Positions 5,604-55,600 of a stretch of DNA of 64,000 nt are shown in pieces; position 1 is the first letter of the stretch; every line of letters begins with the position of its first letter. The notes under the pieces were generated by a model, which worked only from the letters and a program-made list of their open reading frames with translations, searched no databases and was not told where the DNA came from. The position numbers were made by a program, and so were the translations under genes. Where the stretch lies: assembly GCA_036611895.1 (NCBI GenBank), contig GCA_036611895.1_4766.1, one strand, 5' to 3'. The stretch comes from a phage.

Positions 5604-6059
5604 TTAGATGTAAGGGGTTAAATCTGGGGGAGTATAGTCTTTCCCTTTCATAACTTTCTTATTCTCATTGAAGACAGGTTCCCCATCTTCAAACTTAGAA
5701 TAGTTTGAGCGATTGACTTCAGCCAATGCTCCAGGGACATTCATCCCAAGGAAAGTACCGACGCCAGTTGCTGTAACAATCTGGTCTGCCAGTGAATCCA
5801 GCAGGTTGGTACTGGCGTCAATGCGATAAGCATCGTCATTACGTTTCATATGGTTTGCCAGATTTGTAATGGCATCTTGTGCACGTTGTAGCAATTCTGC
5901 ATCGTAGCTACCATTTGGATAAATGGTCTGAAGCATTTCTTCTACTTCTTCCAGATGACAACCAATCTGGGTACTAATGTTCTTACTCGTCGGATTCGGT
6001 ACGGCTTTTAGAAACCATTGCCGTGTGTTTTCCAGCGTACAAACGGATGAACTTGTCAT
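5604..6059 (-). CDS. hypothetical protein (151 aa); start may be downstream of annotated ATG
   Basis: ORF track; 5' end overlaps upstream HTH gene by about 77 nt in another frame. Acidic helical motif HLEEVEEMLQ; function not assignable. Confidence 0.4.
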   Translation of the reverse strand: MTSSSVCTLENTRQWFLKAVPNPTSKNISTQIGCHLEEVEEMLQTIYPNGSYDAELLQRAQDAITNLANHMKRNDDAYRIDASTNLLDSLADQIVTATGVGTFLGMNVPGALAEVNRSNYSKFEDGEPVFNENKKVMKGKDYTPPDLTPYI

Positions 6060-6378
6060 GCTCAGTCTCTTGGTTAAGGTGGCGATTGTTATATGCCTCC
6101 AGAATCAAGTCTCTTACATATGAGCGAATCTCATAAGCAGGACCAACTTGTTCTGACAGCCAATCAGCCACATGGGTTGGTAAAGGACGTAATACGTTTT
6201 CCATGAACGTCCGACGTGTGTCGGCTGGTTCAATGTTTAGAGAACGCAATCGCAAAGTAACTGTAGTTGGGTGAACCCCCAACGTCTTAGCGATAGTTGC
6301 GAGGGACAGACCAACAGCATTCATACGAATGATGTCTTCATCGGTTGCTTTGCGATTACTTCTGAATACTTTAGACAT
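5983..6378 (-). CDS. helix-turn-helix DNA-binding protein
   Basis: 131 aa. HTH-like segment LSLATIAKTLGVHPTTVTLRL; RBS GAGGAAA about 9 nt upstream of ATG. Confidence 0.55.
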   Translation of the reverse strand: MSKVFRSNRKATDEDIIRMNAVGLSLATIAKTLGVHPTTVTLRLRSLNIEPADTRRTFMENVLRPLPTHVADWLSEQVGPAYEIRSYVRDLILEAYNNRHLNQETEHDKFIRLYAGKHTAMVSKSRTESDE

Positions 6379-27785: not shown

Positions 27786-28109
27786 TTAGTCTTTAGTCAG
27801 GATGTCAATTACTTTGGAATATTCTGCGTTATAGATCCGAGCGTTCTCTGAATCCTTGCAGAATTCCTCGATACTTTTCTTACGCAGAGTCTCAGTCATA
27901 GCTGTTTCCTCTGCCAGTTTATTAACAAAGGTATGCATTTCTAATTTAGTACGAATGGCTTGTTTCTCTGCCATAGTACTAACATATGAATTAAGCATAC
28001 CTACTGCTTTAGTTGCTGTGCTGAATGTATCTGCAACAGTAGTAGCAGCTGAGTTAACAGTACCAAGTAAAGTTCCTGCGGTCATACGTACAGTAGCTTG
28101 AGTAGTCAT
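27786..28109 (-). CDS. early protein (107 aa), first gene downstream of P-a
   Basis: ORF track; about 49 nt downstream of P-a hairpin centre. Confidence 0.5.
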   Translation of the reverse strand: MTTQATVRMTAGTLLGTVNSAATTVADTFSTATKAVGMLNSYVSTMAEKQAIRTKLEMHTFVNKLAEETAMTETLRKKSIEEFCKDSENARIYNAEYSKVIDILTKD

Positions 28110-28145
28110 GATGATAGCTCCAATAGTTGATGATAGGACGACATG

Positions 28146-28168
28146 TCCATAACATGCGGAGCATGTGT
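28146..28168 (-). promoter_or_regulatory. vRNAP-type hairpin early promoter (P-a)
   Basis: tccataa-catgc-gga-gcatg: same stem/GGA-loop architecture and tccataa flank. Confidence 0.55.
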
Positions 28169-28343
28169 AACGTGTAAGGTGGGGTAGGGTAGTGGCTACA
28201 CCGTCAACATACCGGGGGGGCTAGTTGAGTGTAAGGGTGTAGCCCCAGCCACACCACTATGGCTGTACATAGCTATCACAATTTTGACATGCAAAAATAT
28301 TATAGGCACTATCTCTATAAGCAGATAACTTTGAGGTACTAAC

Positions 28344-28472
28344 ATGAAAGATGGATGGGGTAACTACAATCCTACAGACCCTGAGAACTGGCTTCACTTT
28401 ATTGCATGGGCTTGCGCTGTAGGATTCATAAGTATTGTGCTCTTATCACTGGTTCTATCTTATCTGTAAATA
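28344..28472 (+). CDS. candidate 42-aa single-pass membrane micro-protein on the opposite strand
   Basis: MKDGWGNYNPTDPENWLHFIAWACAVGFISIVLLSLVLSYL; GAGGT 6 nt upstream of ATG; TTGACA hexamer about 55 nt upstream; hairpin follows stop. Confidence 0.3.
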
Positions 28473-28473
28473 C

Positions 28474-28497
28474 TATGGGGGATAGCTATTTATCCCC
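28474..28497. terminator. hairpin (possible bidirectional terminator) between micro-ORF and paralog array
   Basis: ggggata-gctatt-tatcccc stem-loop read in sequence. Confidence 0.35.
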
Positions 28498-28667
28498 TAT
28501 TCATCATAGCGTTTAATACCTAAAACCTTGTATAGCTTACCCTTTACAAGCAATGGTCCACCTACTTCTACGAAAGCTAGGCTGTGTACTATCACTGGTT
28601 CAAGTAAGCCTTTTACTGTTATATACCACATATTAATCCTTATAAGCAGTTAAATAGGAGGAAGTGG

Positions 28668-29072
28668 TTAGTAGCTATCTGTGATACCAAAGGACATATG
28701 ATAACCACCTGTGTTTACATCCCAGGGTTGCGACAAATTAATATCCCAAGGAAGTGTCTTTCCAGATTCAAGTATTCTTATAGACCTGAAGGAGTTACCC
28801 TCTTTTATCATACTGGTTTTTACTGTTACCGGTAGGAAGATATGGAAGTAATCCCCTTCTGGTGCAAGGTAAGTATCTCCTTCATTGAGGGTAACTATCT
28901 TTGCTTTGCTGTTAGTGAGAAGTCTATGCCCCTGTGCAAAATCTGCTAACTCTCCTGGTTCCATTATTAGTGTAGAACTCCCATAGGTCATAATATGGAT
29001 GATTGCTTTTTCTGGTTCAGAGGAATAGTGCAGTAAATCTGTACCATTCATCCCTAAGAGTTTAACGTTCAT
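28668..29072 (-). CDS. paralog-array protein P6 (134 aa)
   Basis: Core STLIMEPGELADFAQGHRLLTNSKAKIVTLNEGDTY aligns with the other five paralogs. Confidence 0.55.
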   Translation of the reverse strand: MNVKLLGMNGTDLLHYSSEPEKAIIHIMTYGSSTLIMEPGELADFAQGHRLLTNSKAKIVTLNEGDTYLAPEGDYFHIFLPVTVKTSMIKEGNSFRSIRILESGKTLPWDINLSQPWDVNTGGYHMSFGITDSY

Positions 29073-29075
29073 ACT

Positions 29076-29360
29076 TCAGTACCTTTCCTTATAGATGGGG
29101 GTGCTATCATCGAATGATAGGATGTACTTGTCTGTATTAAGATGCCAAGGACTAAAGCTACCCTGCCAGGACATAGGTGTTTCTGGTTCAAGTAGATGTA
29201 CTACCGAATTCTTATTGTATAGGAAGAGTAATCCTTGTATCTCATGTAGAGACTGTTCATCTGGAACCAAGATAAGTACATCAGCATTCAGGTCAGCTAT
29301 TTCTTTATGGTGGATGTAATTTTCCCCATTAGGCTCTGGATAAATTTTACTGATAACCAT
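29076..29360 (-). CDS. paralog-array protein P5 (94 aa)
   Basis: Core DVLILVPDEQSLHEIQGLLFLYNKNSVVHLLEPETP. Confidence 0.6.
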   Translation of the reverse strand: MVISKIYPEPNGENYIHHKEIADLNADVLILVPDEQSLHEIQGLLFLYNKNSVVHLLEPETPMSWQGSFSPWHLNTDKYILSFDDSTPIYKERY

Positions 29361-29680
29361 TAGAGACTCTCGTCGCTAGATAAATATGAGGTAGAAGGGT
29401 AGAGGGTAATAAGTCTACCGGTAAGGGTAGTAACTACCGTAGGTTCAGCAGTTGATAAGATATATACTCGTGCAAACTCAGATATCTCAACTGATGTATC
29501 TATCTTAGTGAATGTAATGGGTATGCCTAACATTAGACATGTACCTATGAACTCATCTGCTTCTTCATTTGGTTCATATAGGATAGTAGTTCCATCCATC
29601 TTACCATTTAAACAATCTTGTTTAGTTACTTTGCTGCGATAGCAACTTGTACTTAGAGCAACTAATGAGTAGAAGTGCAT
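29360..29680 (-). CDS. paralog-array protein P4 (106 aa, most diverged)
   Basis: Core TTILYEPNEEADEFIGTCLMLGIPITFTKIDTSVEI. Confidence 0.5.
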   Translation of the reverse strand: MHFYSLVALSTSCYRSKVTKQDCLNGKMDGTTILYEPNEEADEFIGTCLMLGIPITFTKIDTSVEISEFARVYILSTAEPTVVTTLTGRLITLYPSTSYLSSDESL

Positions 29681-29683
29681 GGC

Positions 29684-29998
29684 TTACTTCCTTACATAGT
29701 AATAATGGTATTCCTCATTCTCATGACTACTATCCCATTGGTAATCATCAGATACCAACATGAAAGGCAGGGCGTCATATGCACTGCTATCGGCATAGAC
29801 GGAAGGAGGAATGATACATACAACCTTACGATCATTACCTGCTAAGAATAGTTGACCTCTTACTTCATGGTAGTCCTCTAGAGTAGGAACCAGGATTACA
29901 TGCTGAGGATTGCTATCTATCACTTCTTCTAAAGTGAAGTCTGTTGTGTACAAGGATTCCCCTTTAATAAAACTGGGGGCGGTCAGTATGAATTTCAT
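29684..29998 (-). CDS. paralog-array protein P3 (start at internal ATG with AAGGAAGGAAAA RBS)
   Basis: Core HVILVPTLEDYHEVRGQLFLAGNDRKVVCIIPPSVY; ORF track 29684..30073. Confidence 0.6.
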   Translation of the reverse strand: MKFILTAPSFIKGESLYTTDFTLEEVIDSNPQHVILVPTLEDYHEVRGQLFLAGNDRKVVCIIPPSVYADSSAYDALPFMLVSDDYQWDSSHENEEYHYYYVRK

Positions 29999-30359
29999 GA
30001 TGGATTTTCCTTCCTTTAGGAATAGGTCTGAAGTAAACGGAAAGTGTTTTATTAAAGAGGTTATGTTCAACAATCATTTCCCAGCCTGGTACTTTATAGA
30101 ACCTGACTCCTGGGAAGAATGTTTCGAAGTCTGCATACTCAGTAAGGTCATACACAACTGGTTCAGTAAGTATACGCGTATTGATTTGCAGATTACTTAA
30201 GAAAAATGAACCAACTATCTCGTGGGATTCTTCGCAGTCTGGTAGGAAGACTATTTGTTTGGATAGGAACTTACTAACTATCTCTGGTTCCCCTAGGTAG
30301 TATGGTTCCTGCTTACGTAGTACACCAGTAATATCAATATCAAAAGCGTAGATGCTCAT
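29964..30359 (-). CDS. paralog-array protein P2 (131 aa)
   Basis: Core QIVFLPDCEESHEIVGSFFLSNLQINTRILTEPVVY; strong RBS CAGGAGG upstream. Confidence 0.6.
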   Translation of the reverse strand: MSIYAFDIDITGVLRKQEPYYLGEPEIVSKFLSKQIVFLPDCEESHEIVGSFFLSNLQINTRILTEPVVYDLTEYADFETFFPGVRFYKVPGWEMIVEHNLFNKTLSVYFRPIPKGRKIHHEIHTDRPQFY

Positions 30360-30559: not shown

Positions 30560-30850
30560 TCACATCGTCACCGTCATCCGAACACTGTCTTTGCTTCGCC
30601 TGACGGAGACACTATGAGGTAATTTTGTGAAGAACACAAGAGCTGATGGCCCCTTTTCTAAAGAGTAAGTTTCTCTTGGTTCTAAGATTTTAATGCCCGG
30701 ACGATTCTCTAAAAGCATCATCCCAGCTAATTCATGGTAGGTATCTTCATTATGGGTAATAATGATATCACCTGAAAGAAAACCAGCCTTAGTGTGGTCT
30801 AGCTCCCTGTATTCATCTTTAGAGCCTGAGACTTTCATATAGATTCTCAA
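30560..30850 (-). CDS. paralog-array protein P1 (96 aa; TTG or internal ATG start)
   Basis: Core DIIITHNEDTYHELAGMMLLENRPGIKILEPRETY; first codon is TTG with AAGGAG upstream, in-frame ATG 4 codons later. Confidence 0.55.
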   Translation of the reverse strand: MRIYMKVSGSKDEYRELDHTKAGFLSGDIIITHNEDTYHELAGMMLLENRPGIKILEPRETYSLEKGPSALVFFTKLPHSVSVRRSKDSVRMTVTM

Positions 30851-31021
30851 AGGTTACTCCTTTTGGGAATAGGGTCATCGGAACAATACATACTATTTAG
30901 TATCATGAACTTTTTCTATATCATGACTAAAGTGTAACTGTATGGTATCGTTTCTTCAAGGGGTATCTCACCCCAAGAAAAGAATCTTCTTTAATAGACA
31001 TAACTTTGTAGCGAGATAAGT

Positions 31022-31711
31022 ATGAGTGAACTAACTAAGCAGCAGATTATTAATGCCTTACCTGCTAACTTCAAAAACAGTGTTACCCAGGAGTTGGTAG
31101 ACACGATTAACAACATAACCCAAGACCAACTGGTTGCTGAGTCCTTTCGTGAAAACTTTATCTCCTACTCTGGTGTAATGAAGGAAGGTAAGTTTAAGAC
31201 ACAGGACTACATGAATGCAGTTCAGTATGTGACTTACAAACATATGGGCTACTCAAATAAGGAAGCCTACTTTAAGACGTTCCCTAATCGACAAGCAGAA
31301 CTTGTTGCACGAGGAACCAGTGAGAAAGATATTAGTGCTTATGTATCTGCCTACCACAGGGGTAAGTTAGTTAACCTCATCATGGAACAAAGTTTGGTTC
31401 CAGTGTGGATTGTGAACCAAGACAATTATCAGAAGGCTATCAACGTTCAGGTTGAACTGATGACTACAGCAGCAAGTGAGAAGGTAAGATGTGATGCAGC
31501 TAACTCTATCCTTACTCACTTAGCTAAACCAAAAGATCAGGTAACAAATATCAATCTGGACTTAAGAGAGAACTCCGGATTAACTGACCTCAAGGCAACA
31601 CTTGCTGCATTAGCTGAACAGCAGATTAATGCAATCAATAGTGGTGTACCTACCAAAGAGGTTGCTGGTTCTAAACTAGTACGTGCAGATGAGGACATTA
31701 CAGATGTCTGA
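31022..31711 (+). CDS. putative terminase small subunit / DNA-packaging protein
   Basis: 229 aa immediately upstream of and overlapping large terminase gene; position only. Confidence 0.35.
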   Translation: MSELTKQQIINALPANFKNSVTQELVDTINNITQDQLVAESFRENFISYSGVMKEGKFKTQDYMNAVQYVTYKHMGYSNKEAYFKTFPNRQAELVARGTSEKDISAYVSAYHRGKLVNLIMEQSLVPVWIVNQDNYQKAINVQVELMTTAASEKVRCDAANSILTHLAKPKDQVTNINLDLRENSGLTDLKATLAALAEQQINAINSGVPTKEVAGSKLVRADEDITDV

Positions 31712-38840: not shown

Positions 38841-39053
38841 TATAGAGTCTACTGTTTGCATTACCCTAATGGATACTGATGTTAAGATTATTACTTGCCC
38901 AGATATATTAAACATACCCAACTGAATACCATCCACCATGAGTTGATACCAGATACTACGTCTGGATGTATTTCATCATACTAAGTATTATCTAAGAGTC
39001 ATCTTATGATATGACCCTATTGGGGATTCTAACTACACAACTACGGTAATATT

Positions 39054-39383
39054 ATGAATGAATCGGGTGAACTACTCCTAGTCAGACTGGAGGAACGATT
39101 GAAGACTCTGTTTGAGAACCAGACAAGGGAAAGGCAGGACCGTGAGAAACTGGAGGAAACTCTGGTAGAACTACGGGATTCAATCAATGACATAGGCAAT
39201 AGGCTGAAAAATGTGGAGGATAGCTTAGCTAAGAATGAACCTACTATTGAAGAGTTCATTACCATTAAGCATAAAGTTGTTGGTGCTGGGATTTTCGGTA
39301 AGTGGGTATGGGCTGGGGCAGGTGCAATTATTGGTGTATTGGCTGCTGCAAGACGGGAGATTTTCACATGGTTCGCAGGCTAA
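39054..39383 (+). CDS. coiled-coil protein with C-terminal transmembrane segment (lysis-module membrane protein)
   Basis: 109 aa. C-terminal VVGAGIFGKWVWAGAGAIIGVLAAA hydrophobic helix. Confidence 0.4.
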   Translation: MNESGELLLVRLEERLKTLFENQTRERQDREKLEETLVELRDSINDIGNRLKNVEDSLAKNEPTIEEFITIKHKVVGAGIFGKWVWAGAGAIIGVLAAARREIFTWFAG

Positions 39384-52562: not shown

Positions 52563-52606
52563 TACATTCACTTACTGTACAGTGAATCTTCTTATACGAT
52601 ATAAGT

Positions 52607-55600
52607 TTGAACAGGAATCATGCTATGTCAACATTTGACCGTCTGGCAGGTTTCGCAGACAGCATCACTACTGCTAAGCAAGTCGATGTCTCTACTGCAA
52701 CCTCTCGGAAACAAGCTGAACAAGGGCAAAGCCCTTTCCAATTAACTCCTCAGAATGCCTACCAATTACAGGCAGGACGTGCCGGTGACTTAGGTGCTGG
52801 TGCATTTGAACCAGGTTCTATTCAGGCAGATTTTACTAATGCCTCCCCCCTTGAAATCGTAAACAAGTATGGCAATGAGCAAGGAATGGACATTCTCAAT
52901 GCTCGTGTCAATGCAGCTAATTCTGTTCGTCGTGATTTAACTAAGAGTCGTACTTATGGTGAAGCACTTGGTGATACCCTTTCTGGTGTTGGTCTTGGTG
53001 TTGCTAATACCCTTGGGGGCATTGCTGCTCTTGGCACAGGTTTGGTCAATGATAATGCCGGGGCAACCATTGCTTCCAGTCTTGACTGGTTGAATAAAGG
53101 TGTACACAACCTACAGTCTGATGCACTGAATGCTCGCCGTAATGTAGTACAGAACCAGAACGTAATATCTGCACAGGAAAATGAGAAACAGTATAAGCAG
53201 GATATTGCTGAAGGAGAAAGTGAACTCGTTGCTTCCTTGTCTCGCATTGGTCGTGATGCTTACGATTCTGTCGCTAACACTTTGTCTAATGGCATGGCTG
53301 CTACAGATGGTCTGGCTGAGGGTGTTGGTTCACTGTTTACTGGTGGTCCACTTATCCGTGGTGTATCTGCACTAGGTAAGGTAATGGTAGGTGGTGATAA
53401 AGCTGTTAAGGGCATTACCTTAGCTGCTGAATTAGGTTCACGTCCTGCACGAATTGCACAGTCTGCTGGTCGTGTTGCTGCACCTGCTATAGCAATTGGT
53501 GGTATGGAAGCTGGTGGTGCATACCAACAGACTGCTAATGAAATTATGGAAATGCCATTCAGTGAACTGGCTGCTAAATCTCCTGTATACCAACAGCATA
53601 TTAAAGACGGTTTATCTACTGAAGAAGCACGACGTCAGACTGCATCTGAAACAGGTATCACTGCTGCTGGTTTAACTGCTCCAGTTGCTGCTCTTACTGC
53701 TCCACTGGTATCCAAGTTTGAACTTAATCCACTTAAGGTAGGTTCACTGGCTGGTGCTGGTTCTAACATGCTGCGAGAGACTGTAGAAGAAGGTATTCAG
53801 TCTGGTACAAGTCAGTTTGCACAGAACAAGGCAATCCAAGGTAATGTTGATGCATCTCGTGACATCCTCAAAGGTGTAGGCGAACAAACTGGTCTTGGTG
53901 CATTGTATGGCTTTGGTTCTGCTGGAGTTGCTCAAGCTCCTGGTGCAACTGTTAAGGCTGCTGGTGCTGCCGTTGGTCCTGCTGTACGTACTACCCTGGC
54001 TGGTGCTTCTCTGGCTGGTAAGGCATTAGCAAAAGTAGCTTCTCCTATTACTAACATCCTGGTTCAACGTGGGGAAGAAGTTGCTAAGCGTAATGAACAA
54101 GCATCCCCTGTATCTGATGCTACGGTTAACGCTGCTGCACAGGAAGCTACTGCTCAGGCAGAACAAGCACAAGCAACTGTACAGGAAGCAGTAGATGCAA
54201 TGGATATTTCTCCAGAAGAGAAAGCTGCTGCTACTCAGTATGCTGCTGACTTAACTCAGGTAATGAAGTTTGATCCAGTAGAACTGGAACAAGCTAGTCC
54301 AGTAGTCCGTGAAGCTGTTTCTGGTTCCACTAACCGTGTTGAAGCTATTCAGAAGATGGCTGACCTGGTTAATACTGCTGAAGACCCTAACGTTCAAATG
54401 GAAGCTGCAATCCAGATGTATGACAACATTATGTCTATGGATAGCTTCATTAACCGTGATCCAGGTGCATTAGCTAATCTGGAACAGGGTTCTCCTGCTG
54501 CTAATATTGTTGATCAGTTCTCCGGTCTGATGGCTAATGTACAGAATACACCGAAGGTACTCCGTGCATTCCGTGCCATTCATTCCATGATTCAGGAACA
54601 GGCAGAAGCAGGTAAACTGAAAGCTACTGAAGAAGCTAACCAAGCCCAAGCAAACAACATTGCTATGGCTGCTGATATGTCTCCAGAAGTGCTGGACGCA
54701 GATTCAGTGAACATGGTTCTGAAACATGCAAGTGAAGGTAAGATTACATTGGGGAATCGTCAGCGTGCTGCCCTGCAATCTGCTGCTGCTCTATTGCAAG
54801 GAGCACGGGAATTTGACGCTAAAGCAGAAGAACTAGGCTTACGTCCTCAAGACATTGTTAGTAAACAGATTAAAACCGACGAATCTCGTTCTAATGAAGG
54901 TCAGTACTCTGCGTTGCAACATGCTAAACGCATTCGTTCTGCGTACAACTCTGGTAACTTCGATTTGGCTTCCGCTTATCTCGACGACTTTATGAAGTTC
55001 GCCCAGCACATGCAGAATAAGGTCGGAGCGTTGAATGAGCATCTGATTTCTGGGAATGCGGATAAGAATAAGTCTGTCCATTATCAGGCTCTTACTCCCT
55101 CGCGTGAATGGGTACGTAGTCGTACTGGCCTCGGTGTCAATCCGTATGATACCAAGTCTGTTAAGTTTGCCCAACAAGTAGGACTGGAAGCCAAGACCGT
55201 AGCTGATATTGCTAACGCACTTGCTACGGCTTACCCGGAGCTTAATGTTTCTCATGTGAAAGTTACCCCATTGGATTCACGTCTGGACAAGCCTGCTGCC
55301 CAGGTAGTTAAAGAGTTCCGTCAGGGCAATCTTGATGCTGCTCAATCCCAACAGACCAATGAACCAGTGAATCAGGTTGATGAAACTCCTGTTACAAAAC
55401 AGGAACCAGTTACCCCTACTGTACAGACTAAACCCTCTGTTAGTGAAGCTGTTAAAACAGAACCCACTATTAAAGAGTCTAAACCACAGGCTGTAAAAGA
55501 ACCTGAGAATCAGTCTGAATCTTCTATCCCAGCTGGGCCTGAAATGAAGACTGCTGAGTTCACCGGTAAACAGCAAGCCTCATATATGCAGTTAGGTCAG

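Follow-up and report, generated by a model that had tools for sequence, protein, structure and literature searches.

A probable bidirectional sigma-70-type promoter between the right-end and late genes of N4-like phages

How does a phage start two divergent gene blocks from the single short spacer that lies between them? The window (the whole stretch of 64,000 nucleotides that was analysed) comes from an N4-like coliphage of the genus Gamaleyavirus; over segment 29500-33500 it shares 94.6% identity with Shigella phage pSb-1 and 91-93% with the G7C-type coliphages. The map of open reading frames places all genes from 1 to 30850 on the minus strand, where they comprise the early and middle genes and a right-end cluster of small genes. 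From 31022 on, all are late genes of the plus strand, encoding gp69/small terminase, large terminase, tail proteins, portal, capsid and also the 3751-aa virion RNA polymerase. The gene for SSB, the protein that binds single-stranded DNA, probably lies outside the 64-kb window. Between the two blocks is a divergent intergenic control region (30851-31021), delimited by the open reading frame map and the annotation of relatives as the interval between a gp70 homologue (minus strand) and a gp69/small-terminase homologue (plus strand), with a G+C content of 34.5% versus 42.7% for the window. Divergent gene blocks are expected to own a divergent promoter region, and to that extent the locus is an ordinary one. 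From comparison of its sequence with those of relatives, we consider that the spacer probably holds a compact sigma-70-type promoter that works in both directions, initiates the two divergent units and is conserved across the phage family.

The spacer has a length of 171 bp only if the leftward gene starts at the TTG at 30850. This first leftward gene (30560-30850, minus strand) encodes a 96-aa homologue of N4 gp70 of unknown function (phrog_7213) that is 32% identical to N4 gp70 over its full length. We place the start at TTG 30850, and with it the boundary of the spacer, because N4 gp70 aligns from residue 1 and an AAGGAG Shine-Dalgarno sequence lies 5 nt upstream of that codon. The annotation of relatives puts the start of the gp70 homologue at ATG 30838 instead. 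With the TTG start, the original prediction that a 171-bp region parts leftward genes from rightward packaging and structural genes holds in its coordinates. The leftward genes had also been described as a paralog array, a description that has to be abandoned: they are spread over six different PHROG families. The ends of relatives' records and four N4-type early promoters put the physical genome end near 28.2 kb, so the leftward genes from 30850 to about 28.6 kb are the counterparts of N4 gp70-72. A terminator scan found an intrinsic terminator on the minus strand at 30411-30386, just after the gp70 homologue. On the other side of the spacer, the first gene of the late block (31022-31711, plus strand) encodes the N4 gp69 homologue, which the annotation of relatives names as the small terminase subunit (TerS).

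An alignment of 13 sequences from Gamaleyavirus and Moovirus has 79.5% invariant columns over the spacer, a proportion that rises to 91% in 30863-30939 and in 30954-30986. The flanking genes of the same 13 sequences have 48.5% and 67.7% invariant columns, with only 28-35% at third codon positions. Since invariance is 79.5% in the spacer versus 28-35% at those third positions, the spacer is, to judge by these alignments, under stronger constraint than the proteins of the neighbouring genes. BLAST aligns parts of it across genera, with 73% identity to coliphage N4 and 83% to Klebsiella N4-like phages over the stretch from the hairpin to the ATG. Similarity of the spacer to other positions in the window was at chance level, except for two blocks upstream of the lysis genes whose match is doubtful.

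With TerS homologues as anchors in IMG/VR, the most widely conserved piece of the spacer proved to be CTAAAGT[G/C]TAA, which occurs in the window as the core CTAAAGTGTAA at 30927-30937. It is found at the divergence point in Gamaleyavirus, Moo19, L035/36, N4 and KP8-like phages, and also in Achromobacter-type phages (L042-L046), in L048 and L050 and in other L042-L050 lineages. The TerS proteins of these core-carrying lineages are 59-82% identical to that of the window, and the core keeps its position even where one or two unrelated genes have been inserted before terS. It consists of two overlapping -10 hexamers on opposite strands, TAAAGT (plus, 30928-30933) and TACACT (minus, 30936-30931), which share 3 bp at 30931-30933. 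About ten lineages possess a TTG exactly 17 bp upstream of both hexamers, with differing sequence in between. No homology links the -35-bearing stretches of different lineages; those to the right of the core read GGTTTCTGCAA, GGAATATCAA, GGGAGACAA, CCACCCAA, CAACACAA and CTTATTCAA, and despite this the CAA (TTG on the other strand) stands at an identical offset every time. The first reading of the sequence had passed over this best-conserved piece, CTAAAGTGTAA with its two -35 partners.

The 12-base pattern TTG-N20-TAnAnTnTA-N20-CAA is present in 14 of 80 TerS-anchored loci (about ten lineages, 282 kb), against a chance expectation of about 0.02 matches by our own estimate (282 kb divided by 4^12). 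A 16-base version of the pattern has 49 matches in all of IMG/VR; 12 are N4-like and every one of these is located at the divergence point, and the remaining 37 have no TerS or TerL homologue in the retrieved flanks and look like AT-rich background. The invariant positions are T-12, A-11 and T-7 of both hexamers together with the two TTG triplets at 17 bp. When 13 sequences were scanned with sigma-70 weight matrices whose frequencies are our own approximations, TTGnnn-17-TAAAGT was the top plus-strand match in nine, all of them outside Gamaleyavirus, and TTGnnn-17-TA[G/C]ACT was the top minus-strand match in 11. A scan for consensus sigma-70 promoters, with a threshold of 9 of 12 positions, and for terminators called nothing inside 30851-31021.

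The leftward, gp70-ward promoter of the window is predicted to be strong and near consensus. Its -10 element TACACT (30931-30936, minus strand) and -35 element TTGAAG (30954-30959, minus strand) are separated by 17 nt and together form the top minus-strand match in the window; the score of 11.5 is tied third to fourth of nine positions scoring at least 11 among 127,938. Transcription is predicted to start at about 30924. TAGACT or TACACT occupies the homologous minus-strand site in all of the lineages examined, with T-12, A-11 and T-7 present. The TTG at 17 nt is likewise conserved between lineages, the -35 element being TTGCAG in N4, TTGAAG in KP8, TTGAAT in L035, TTGATA in L043, TTGTCT in L042 and TTGCGC in L044/L046, with the TTG also kept in L048 and L050. 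The sequences that separate the -35 and -10 elements are unrelated between lineages and retain the length of 17 nt; within the genus, columns 30942, 30945, 30948 and 30949 of this stretch are variable.

The rightward, terS-ward promoter has an equally constant -10 element, TAAAGT (30928-30933, plus strand; T-12, A-11, T-7), which is invariant across lineages and has a predicted start at about 30940, and in the window a weak -35-like element. The latter, ATGAAC (30905-30910, plus strand), lies 17 nt upstream of TAAAGT, matches the -35 consensus at three of six positions and departs from TTGnnn; ATGAAC-17-TAAAGT scores 8.1, a value reached about once per 600 nt by chance. In the window and two Gamaleyavirus relatives TAAAGT ranks second or third, and in L061 its score is only 5.7. 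Outside Gamaleyavirus and Moovirus the homologous -35 is TTGTAA, TTGCAA, TTGAAG, TTGTAT, TTGAGC or TTGTTT. Two copies of the 8-mer TATCATGA, at 30901-30908 and 30919-30926 and 18 nt apart, are confined to Gamaleyavirus and Moo19; the first overlaps ATGAAC, and between them they provide ATGAAC and ATGACT, the -35-like elements of two plus-strand promoter candidates in tandem. The genus has swapped an ancestral TTGTAA region for sequence that carries these words. The second, alternative candidate, ATGACT-17-TATCGT (30923-30951, plus strand), scores 8.0-9.4 in Gamaleyavirus and has a predicted start at about 30958, which would have the RNA begin, at its 5' end, with the GC hairpin described below. 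Its hexamer at 30946-30951 varies as TAnnGT (TATCGT, TATGGT, TAGAGT, TAAGGT, TACGGT) with T-12, A-11 and T-7 retained, and the candidate is not conserved in N4 or KP8. The window may therefore possess two tandem weak late promoters; since there are three plus-strand candidates, each scoring only about 8, the position of the late start is uncertain, either 30940 or about 30958. A -10-like block close to terS (CATAAC; GATAAT in N4) was considered as a second promoter and rejected, because it has no -35 element and would leave too short a leader.

These properties agree with those of an N4-type late promoter. The late genes of N4 are read by the host sigma-70 polymerase, activated by N4SSB, the protein of N4 that binds single-stranded DNA (PMC4496689), and their promoters have only a remote resemblance to sigma-70 promoters (PMC9163698). 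The activation of N4 late promoters by N4SSB is described by Cho, Choi & Rothman-Denes 1995, as cited in PMC4496689, and acts through the C-terminus of the polymerase beta' subunit; the promoter in the window is likened to them by sequence and location. Like them, the rightward candidate stands at the head of late genes (the terS-terL-structural block), is of the host sigma-70 type though only weakly so, and in Gamaleyavirus combines a recognisable -10 with a poor -35; the N4 sequence upstream of gp69, TTGTAA-17-TAAAGT, aligns with it. The weakness of the rightward -35 fits an activator-dependent late promoter such as has been published for N4. A search of the accessible literature found no mapped transcript ends, late start sites among them, for N4, G7C or the present phage.

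We propose that host RNA polymerase would occupy the core in one orientation at a time, starting at about 30940 on the plus strand and at about 30924 on the minus strand. The rightward unit would be the packaging and structural late genes (gp69/terS, terL onward) and the leftward unit the gp70-like right-end ORFans. The rightward promoter would be the first late promoter, weak alone and boosted by the action of the phage single-stranded-DNA-binding protein on the host enzyme. Strong rightward activation could then reduce leftward initiation by polymerase competition, and by analogy with bacterial systems such competition might switch the region from gp70-ward to late transcription. The kind of promoter is already known from bacteria: in E. 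coli, bidirectional promoters have shared -10 regions and polymerase competition, with mutually exclusive polymerase binding such that activating one direction can repress the other; common spacings between starts are 18, 10 and 23 bp, and small variations of start spacing occur (PMC12825309). The phage element is like the bidirectional promoters of E. coli and Salmonella (Warman et al. 2021; PMC12825309; PMC10268837) in that base pairs are shared between its two opposite-strand -10 elements, the -35 elements lie outside them, and the divergent mRNAs are predicted to start a few bases to either side. It differs from them in its 3-bp hexamer overlap and in its predicted start-to-start distance of 16 bp, on the assumption that each start is 7 nt from its own hexamer, as compared with the common 18, 10 or 23. 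It also differs from its bacterial counterparts in being a phage element, placed at the late-gene boundary of a lytic phage and conserved across genera.

The two-way element itself is previously unannotated. The targeting of host polymerase to late genes in N4-like phages is understood in outline only, as an SSB in contact with beta' and promoters with only a faint likeness to those of the host. A late-block promoter that is shared across genera and shares its -10 with an opposing promoter offers a template for testing N4SSB activation, and for testing whether firing in one direction shuts off the other. For annotation in this phage family the gains are the TTG start of gp70, the start of the late operon and a hairpin that should not be called a terminator.

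That GC hairpin, GGGGT (30960-30964)-ATCTC-ACCCC (30970-30974), occupies 30960-30974 and directly abuts the leftward -35, covering +21 to +35 of the predicted late transcript and -36 to -50 of the leftward promoter. The original prediction of a GC hairpin with symmetric T and A tracts is borne out: the flanks TTTCTT and AAGAA are complementary and lengthen the stem, and the 41-nt hairpin region folds as DNA at -8.5 kcal/mol (z = -5.4 with flanks), a value matched by none of 200 shuffles. The hairpin is kept in Gamaleyavirus, Moo19, L035 and N4, with only 3 bp left in KP8. It forms the inner portion of an extended two-part stem (30949-30987, plus strand), in which an outer helix pairs 30949-30956 with 30980-30987 and is followed by an internal loop and then by the GC hairpin. 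In the extended stem 89% of cells are paired, and only 10 of 500 shuffles attain its covariation score. C30954-G30982 becomes A-T in L035, the single such compensatory pair; in KP8 the T30951/T30985 mismatch is repaired to A-T, while the inner stem shrinks to 3 bp; and the pair 30949/30987 has three pair types. An alternative, minimum-free-energy register of the outer stem was discarded for want of covariation support.

With moderate confidence, and with one compensatory pair and one repaired mismatch as the evidence for a leader role, the hairpin is most likely a stem-loop in the late-mRNA leader (+10 to +48) that affects the stability or processing of the message. We are also moderately confident that its left arm doubles as the leftward -35. 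The A-rich block AAGAAAAGAATC (30975-30986), which is identical in Gamaleyavirus, N4 and KP8, may be an arm of the outer stem, a UP-like T-tract at -51 to -62 of the leftward promoter, or both. The whole predicted late leader folds no better than shuffles (z = -0.1), and neither of the predicted 5' leaders, rightward or leftward, beats shuffles in its global fold (z about 0). Covariance-model searching of the region with Rfam 15 returned only a spurious mir-279 match (22.9 bits versus a gathering score of 56), and a tRNA search of the region found none. A small upstream open reading frame of 25 codons at 30942-31019 was rejected as a coding element: its start codon is not conserved in KP8, a 1-nt loop deletion shifts the frame in N4, and its variable columns have no third-position bias.

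The inverted repeat to the left of the core and the direct repeat beside it make a weaker case. The palindrome named in the original prediction exists but has to be redrawn as ATACTA-TT-TAGTAT (30890-30903), with 6-nt arms and a 2-nt spacer, at -50 to -37 of the rightward promoter and +22 to +35 of the leftward transcript. Its fold is weak (-1 kcal/mol, z = -0.3), and 16% of 1000 dinucleotide shuffles of the region contain an inverted repeat whose arms measure 6 nt or more. The duplicated TCATGA words, also named there, are real as parts of the 8-mer TATCATGA, and here too the statistics are modest, with 8.5% of 1000 dinucleotide shuffles containing a direct repeat of 8 nt or more inside 40 nt. 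Each is non-significant alone. Inverted repeats with other arms and loops are present at the homologous place in relatives: CTTAC-TATT-GTAAG in N4, where it overlaps the -35 TTGTAA, CATAC-TATT-GTATG in L035, and others with a 3-nt loop in Moo19 and a 4-nt loop in L034.

The original prediction saw in these motifs the elements of a control region for both units. Strong constraint and promoter-like elements shared across genera sustain such a region, but not the motifs that were put forward as its elements. To take the palindrome and the TCATGA words as promoter or operator elements and the GC hairpin as a bidirectional intrinsic terminator governing both units is, in our estimation, very improbable. 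The named motifs do exist, the hairpin folds far better than shuffles, and distant relatives have, upstream of terS, a GC hairpin that follows the stop codon of an inserted gene in the manner of a terminator; in the window, as in bidirectional intrinsic terminators, a GC stem lies between complementary A/T-rich runs. The polarity of those runs is the reverse of that of an intrinsic terminator, however: on both strands a T-rich run precedes the stem and an A-rich run follows it, the sequence 3' of the stem being AAGAAAAG on the plus strand and TTGAAGAAAC on the minus strand, with no T-run immediately 3'. The terminator scan, which found that at 30411-30386 and others nearby, was silent at the hairpin. 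Bidirectional terminators belong between convergent genes, and between the divergent genes of this locus only antisense transcripts could enter the region. As to operators, neither the palindrome nor the TCATGA words occur outside Gamaleyavirus and Moovirus, whereas the CTAAAGTGTAA core is family-wide. A phage polymerase acting in one or both directions is a better candidate, though still an unlikely one; the hairpin would then be a promoter of the virion-polymerase or LUZ7 type, or the core a middle promoter of N4 RNAPII. The leftward genes share their polarity with the early and middle genes, and N4 RNAPII promoters are short and AT-rich. Like the N4 virion-RNA-polymerase promoters, the hairpin is a short GC-rich inverted repeat in a phage family that uses extruded DNA hairpins. 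Those promoters, as defined in PMC4496689 and a table of KP8 promoters, are located at the left genome end and have a stem of 5-7 bp, a 3-nt G-R-A loop closed by C:G (C-GNA-G; GCTCCGC on the non-template strand), defined bases at -11, -10, -8 and +1 and a conserved downstream TGG. The hairpin in the spacer has neither the C-GNA-G motif nor those defined bases, and it lies in another place. True sites are easily recognised, as four GCTCCGC-N6-TGG hairpins with 3-nt loops at 28162, 27316, 26989 and 22511 (0.06 expected) that match published KP8 and N4 promoters. The spacer hairpin, with its 5-nt loop (ATCTC/GAGAT) and no GCTCCGC, was accordingly rejected as a virion-polymerase promoter.

The middle promoters of the Pseudomonas relative LUZ7 provide another parallel, for they too have an intergenic GC-rich hairpin by the right-end ORFan cluster of an N4-like phage (PMC9163698). 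In LUZ7 about 15 bp separate the hairpin from a downstream G start; in the window there is a G (30982) 15 nt to the right of the centre of the hairpin loop. The right-end ORFans of LUZ7 already lie within middle-phase transcripts made by the phage polymerase, so the leftward unit of the window need not depend on host polymerase. LUZ7 stems have at least 6 bp and loops of 3-4 nt (PMC9163698), unlike the 5-nt loop of the window hairpin, which is down to 3 bp in KP8 and so is not maintained there; for N4-type phages that encode gp1 and gp2, AT-rich, non-hairpin middle promoters have been reported (PMC9163698). Against a phage polymerase, the core heptamer CTAAAGT/ACTTTAG is not enriched upstream of middle genes, with 11 matches versus 12.9 expected, and a TTG exactly 17 bp from both hexamers is specific to sigma-70 geometry. 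It is also very unlikely that the symmetric element is primarily a DNA site with a role outside transcription, such as a replication origin or a site for packaging-protein binding, to which the hexamers would be incidental. The spacer is indeed an AT-rich strand-switch point with repeats and inverted repeats, and the replication origins of N4 are poorly defined. The cumulative GC skew, however, reaches its minimum around 26-28 kb, where the genome physically ends, and not at 30.9 kb; the genome termini, and with them the terminase cut sites, are about 2.7 kb away; and the repeat is genus-specific and has only two copies. What is invariant is exactly T-12, A-11 and T-7 of two hexamers and two TTG triplets at 17 bp, and a two-way sigma-70-type promoter remains our preferred explanation.

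DNA topology might add a further level of control to such a promoter. The two inverted repeats that flank the core are mirror-placed, each covering about -36/-37 to -50 of one promoter; in N4 (the left repeat) and in the window (the outer stem on the right) an arm overlaps a -35, and each repeat exhibits compensatory change between lineages. The early-promoter hairpins of N4 extrude under negative supercoiling. It is conceivable, although we consider it very improbable, that the flanking repeats likewise extrude as cruciforms under negative supercoiling and hide either -35, so that topology or replication would set the direction of firing; if true, this would be a structure-based switch from expression of the right-end cluster to late expression.

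Two other conserved blocks lie towards the edges of the spacer. On the gp70 side, GAATAGG (30867-30873), which is [C/G]AATAGG in relatives, adjoins the gp70 Shine-Dalgarno sequence, and [C/G]AATAGG is found 51-62 nt to the left of CTAAAGT in nearly all core-carrying lineages. The terS-proximal block TAGACATAACTTTGTAG (30995-31011, plus strand) is the same, or almost the same, in Gamaleyavirus, L035 and KP8, has TAGATAATTTGTAG as its counterpart in N4, and resembles the block that follows the terS-proximal hairpin of L048.

The first of the leftward genes, the homologue of N4 gp70, most likely starts at the TTG at 30850: AAGGAG lies 5 nt upstream of this codon, and N4 gp70 aligns with the predicted product from residue 1. 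In the GenBank relatives the gp70 start is annotated four codons further downstream, at ATG 30838. Because a strong intrinsic terminator (11-bp stem plus T-run; 30411-30386, minus strand) lies directly 3' of the gene, the predicted leftward promoter may produce mainly a monocistronic gp70 message of ~540 nt, with read-through into the remaining right-end genes.

Those genes had been described in the original prediction as a paralog array, a description that does not hold for the cluster. Only two neighbours have a PHROG family in common, phrog_16338: the gene at 29076-29360 and, through its C-terminus, the one at 28668-29072. The remaining leftward genes belong to different PHROG families, and the cluster is therefore not an array of paralogs. 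Like the early/middle genes, whose GC skew is negative, the cluster is transcribed from the minus strand, yet its own skew is positive (+0.045 at 28001-30000); the cumulative GC skew of the window reaches its minimum at ~26-28 kb. Four N4-type early promoters for the virion RNA polymerase (GCTCCGC-N6-TGG, hairpin with a 3-nt loop) are found on the minus strand at 28162-28147, 27316-27301, 26989-26974 and 22511-22496, against 0.06 expected by chance, and they agree with the published P1-P4 pattern of the N4-like phage KP8. These promoters imply that the physical left end of the genome lies near 28.2-28.3 kb and thus that the window is a permuted or end-joined version of a linear genome.

The gp70 homologue may share a regulatory module with the lysis cassette. 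The window contains just two exact copies of the 11-mer ATGACCCTATT, one upstream of the gp70 homologue (30878-30868, minus strand) and one (39011-39021, plus strand) in the long spacer that precedes the lysis-cassette gene at 39054; TTCAT[G/C]ATACTAA is found 25-33 nt further upstream of both copies. The statistics for this pairing are weak, and the module is absent upstream of gp63 in N4.

On the rightward side, distant Schitoviridae from IMG/VR (L019-L024, L042-L050) have a conserved element 15-60 nt upstream of terS, the small-terminase gene: a GC hairpin and, after it, a palindrome centred on TATATA. Achromobacter-type phages have CTCTATATATAGAG at this place, and Salmonella and Pollock-type phages have GTACTATATAGTAC. 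The terS-proximal CTCTAGATAATTTGTAGGAAGA of N4 resembles CTCTACATAAATTAGAGGAAGA of locus L048. In the window, GATAAGT-like sequences precede both the virion RNA polymerase gene (GATATAAGT, 52595-52609; TTG start at 52607) and terS (GAGATAAGT, 31013-31024; ATG at 31022), and a clear Shine-Dalgarno motif is absent at both positions.

A second high-scoring promoter-like site of the window, TTGAAG-17-TAAAGT (score 11.6), lies on the minus strand at 6373, within the beginning of ORF 5983-6378; the same two hexamers make up the predicted late promoter of L042, an Achromobacter-type phage.
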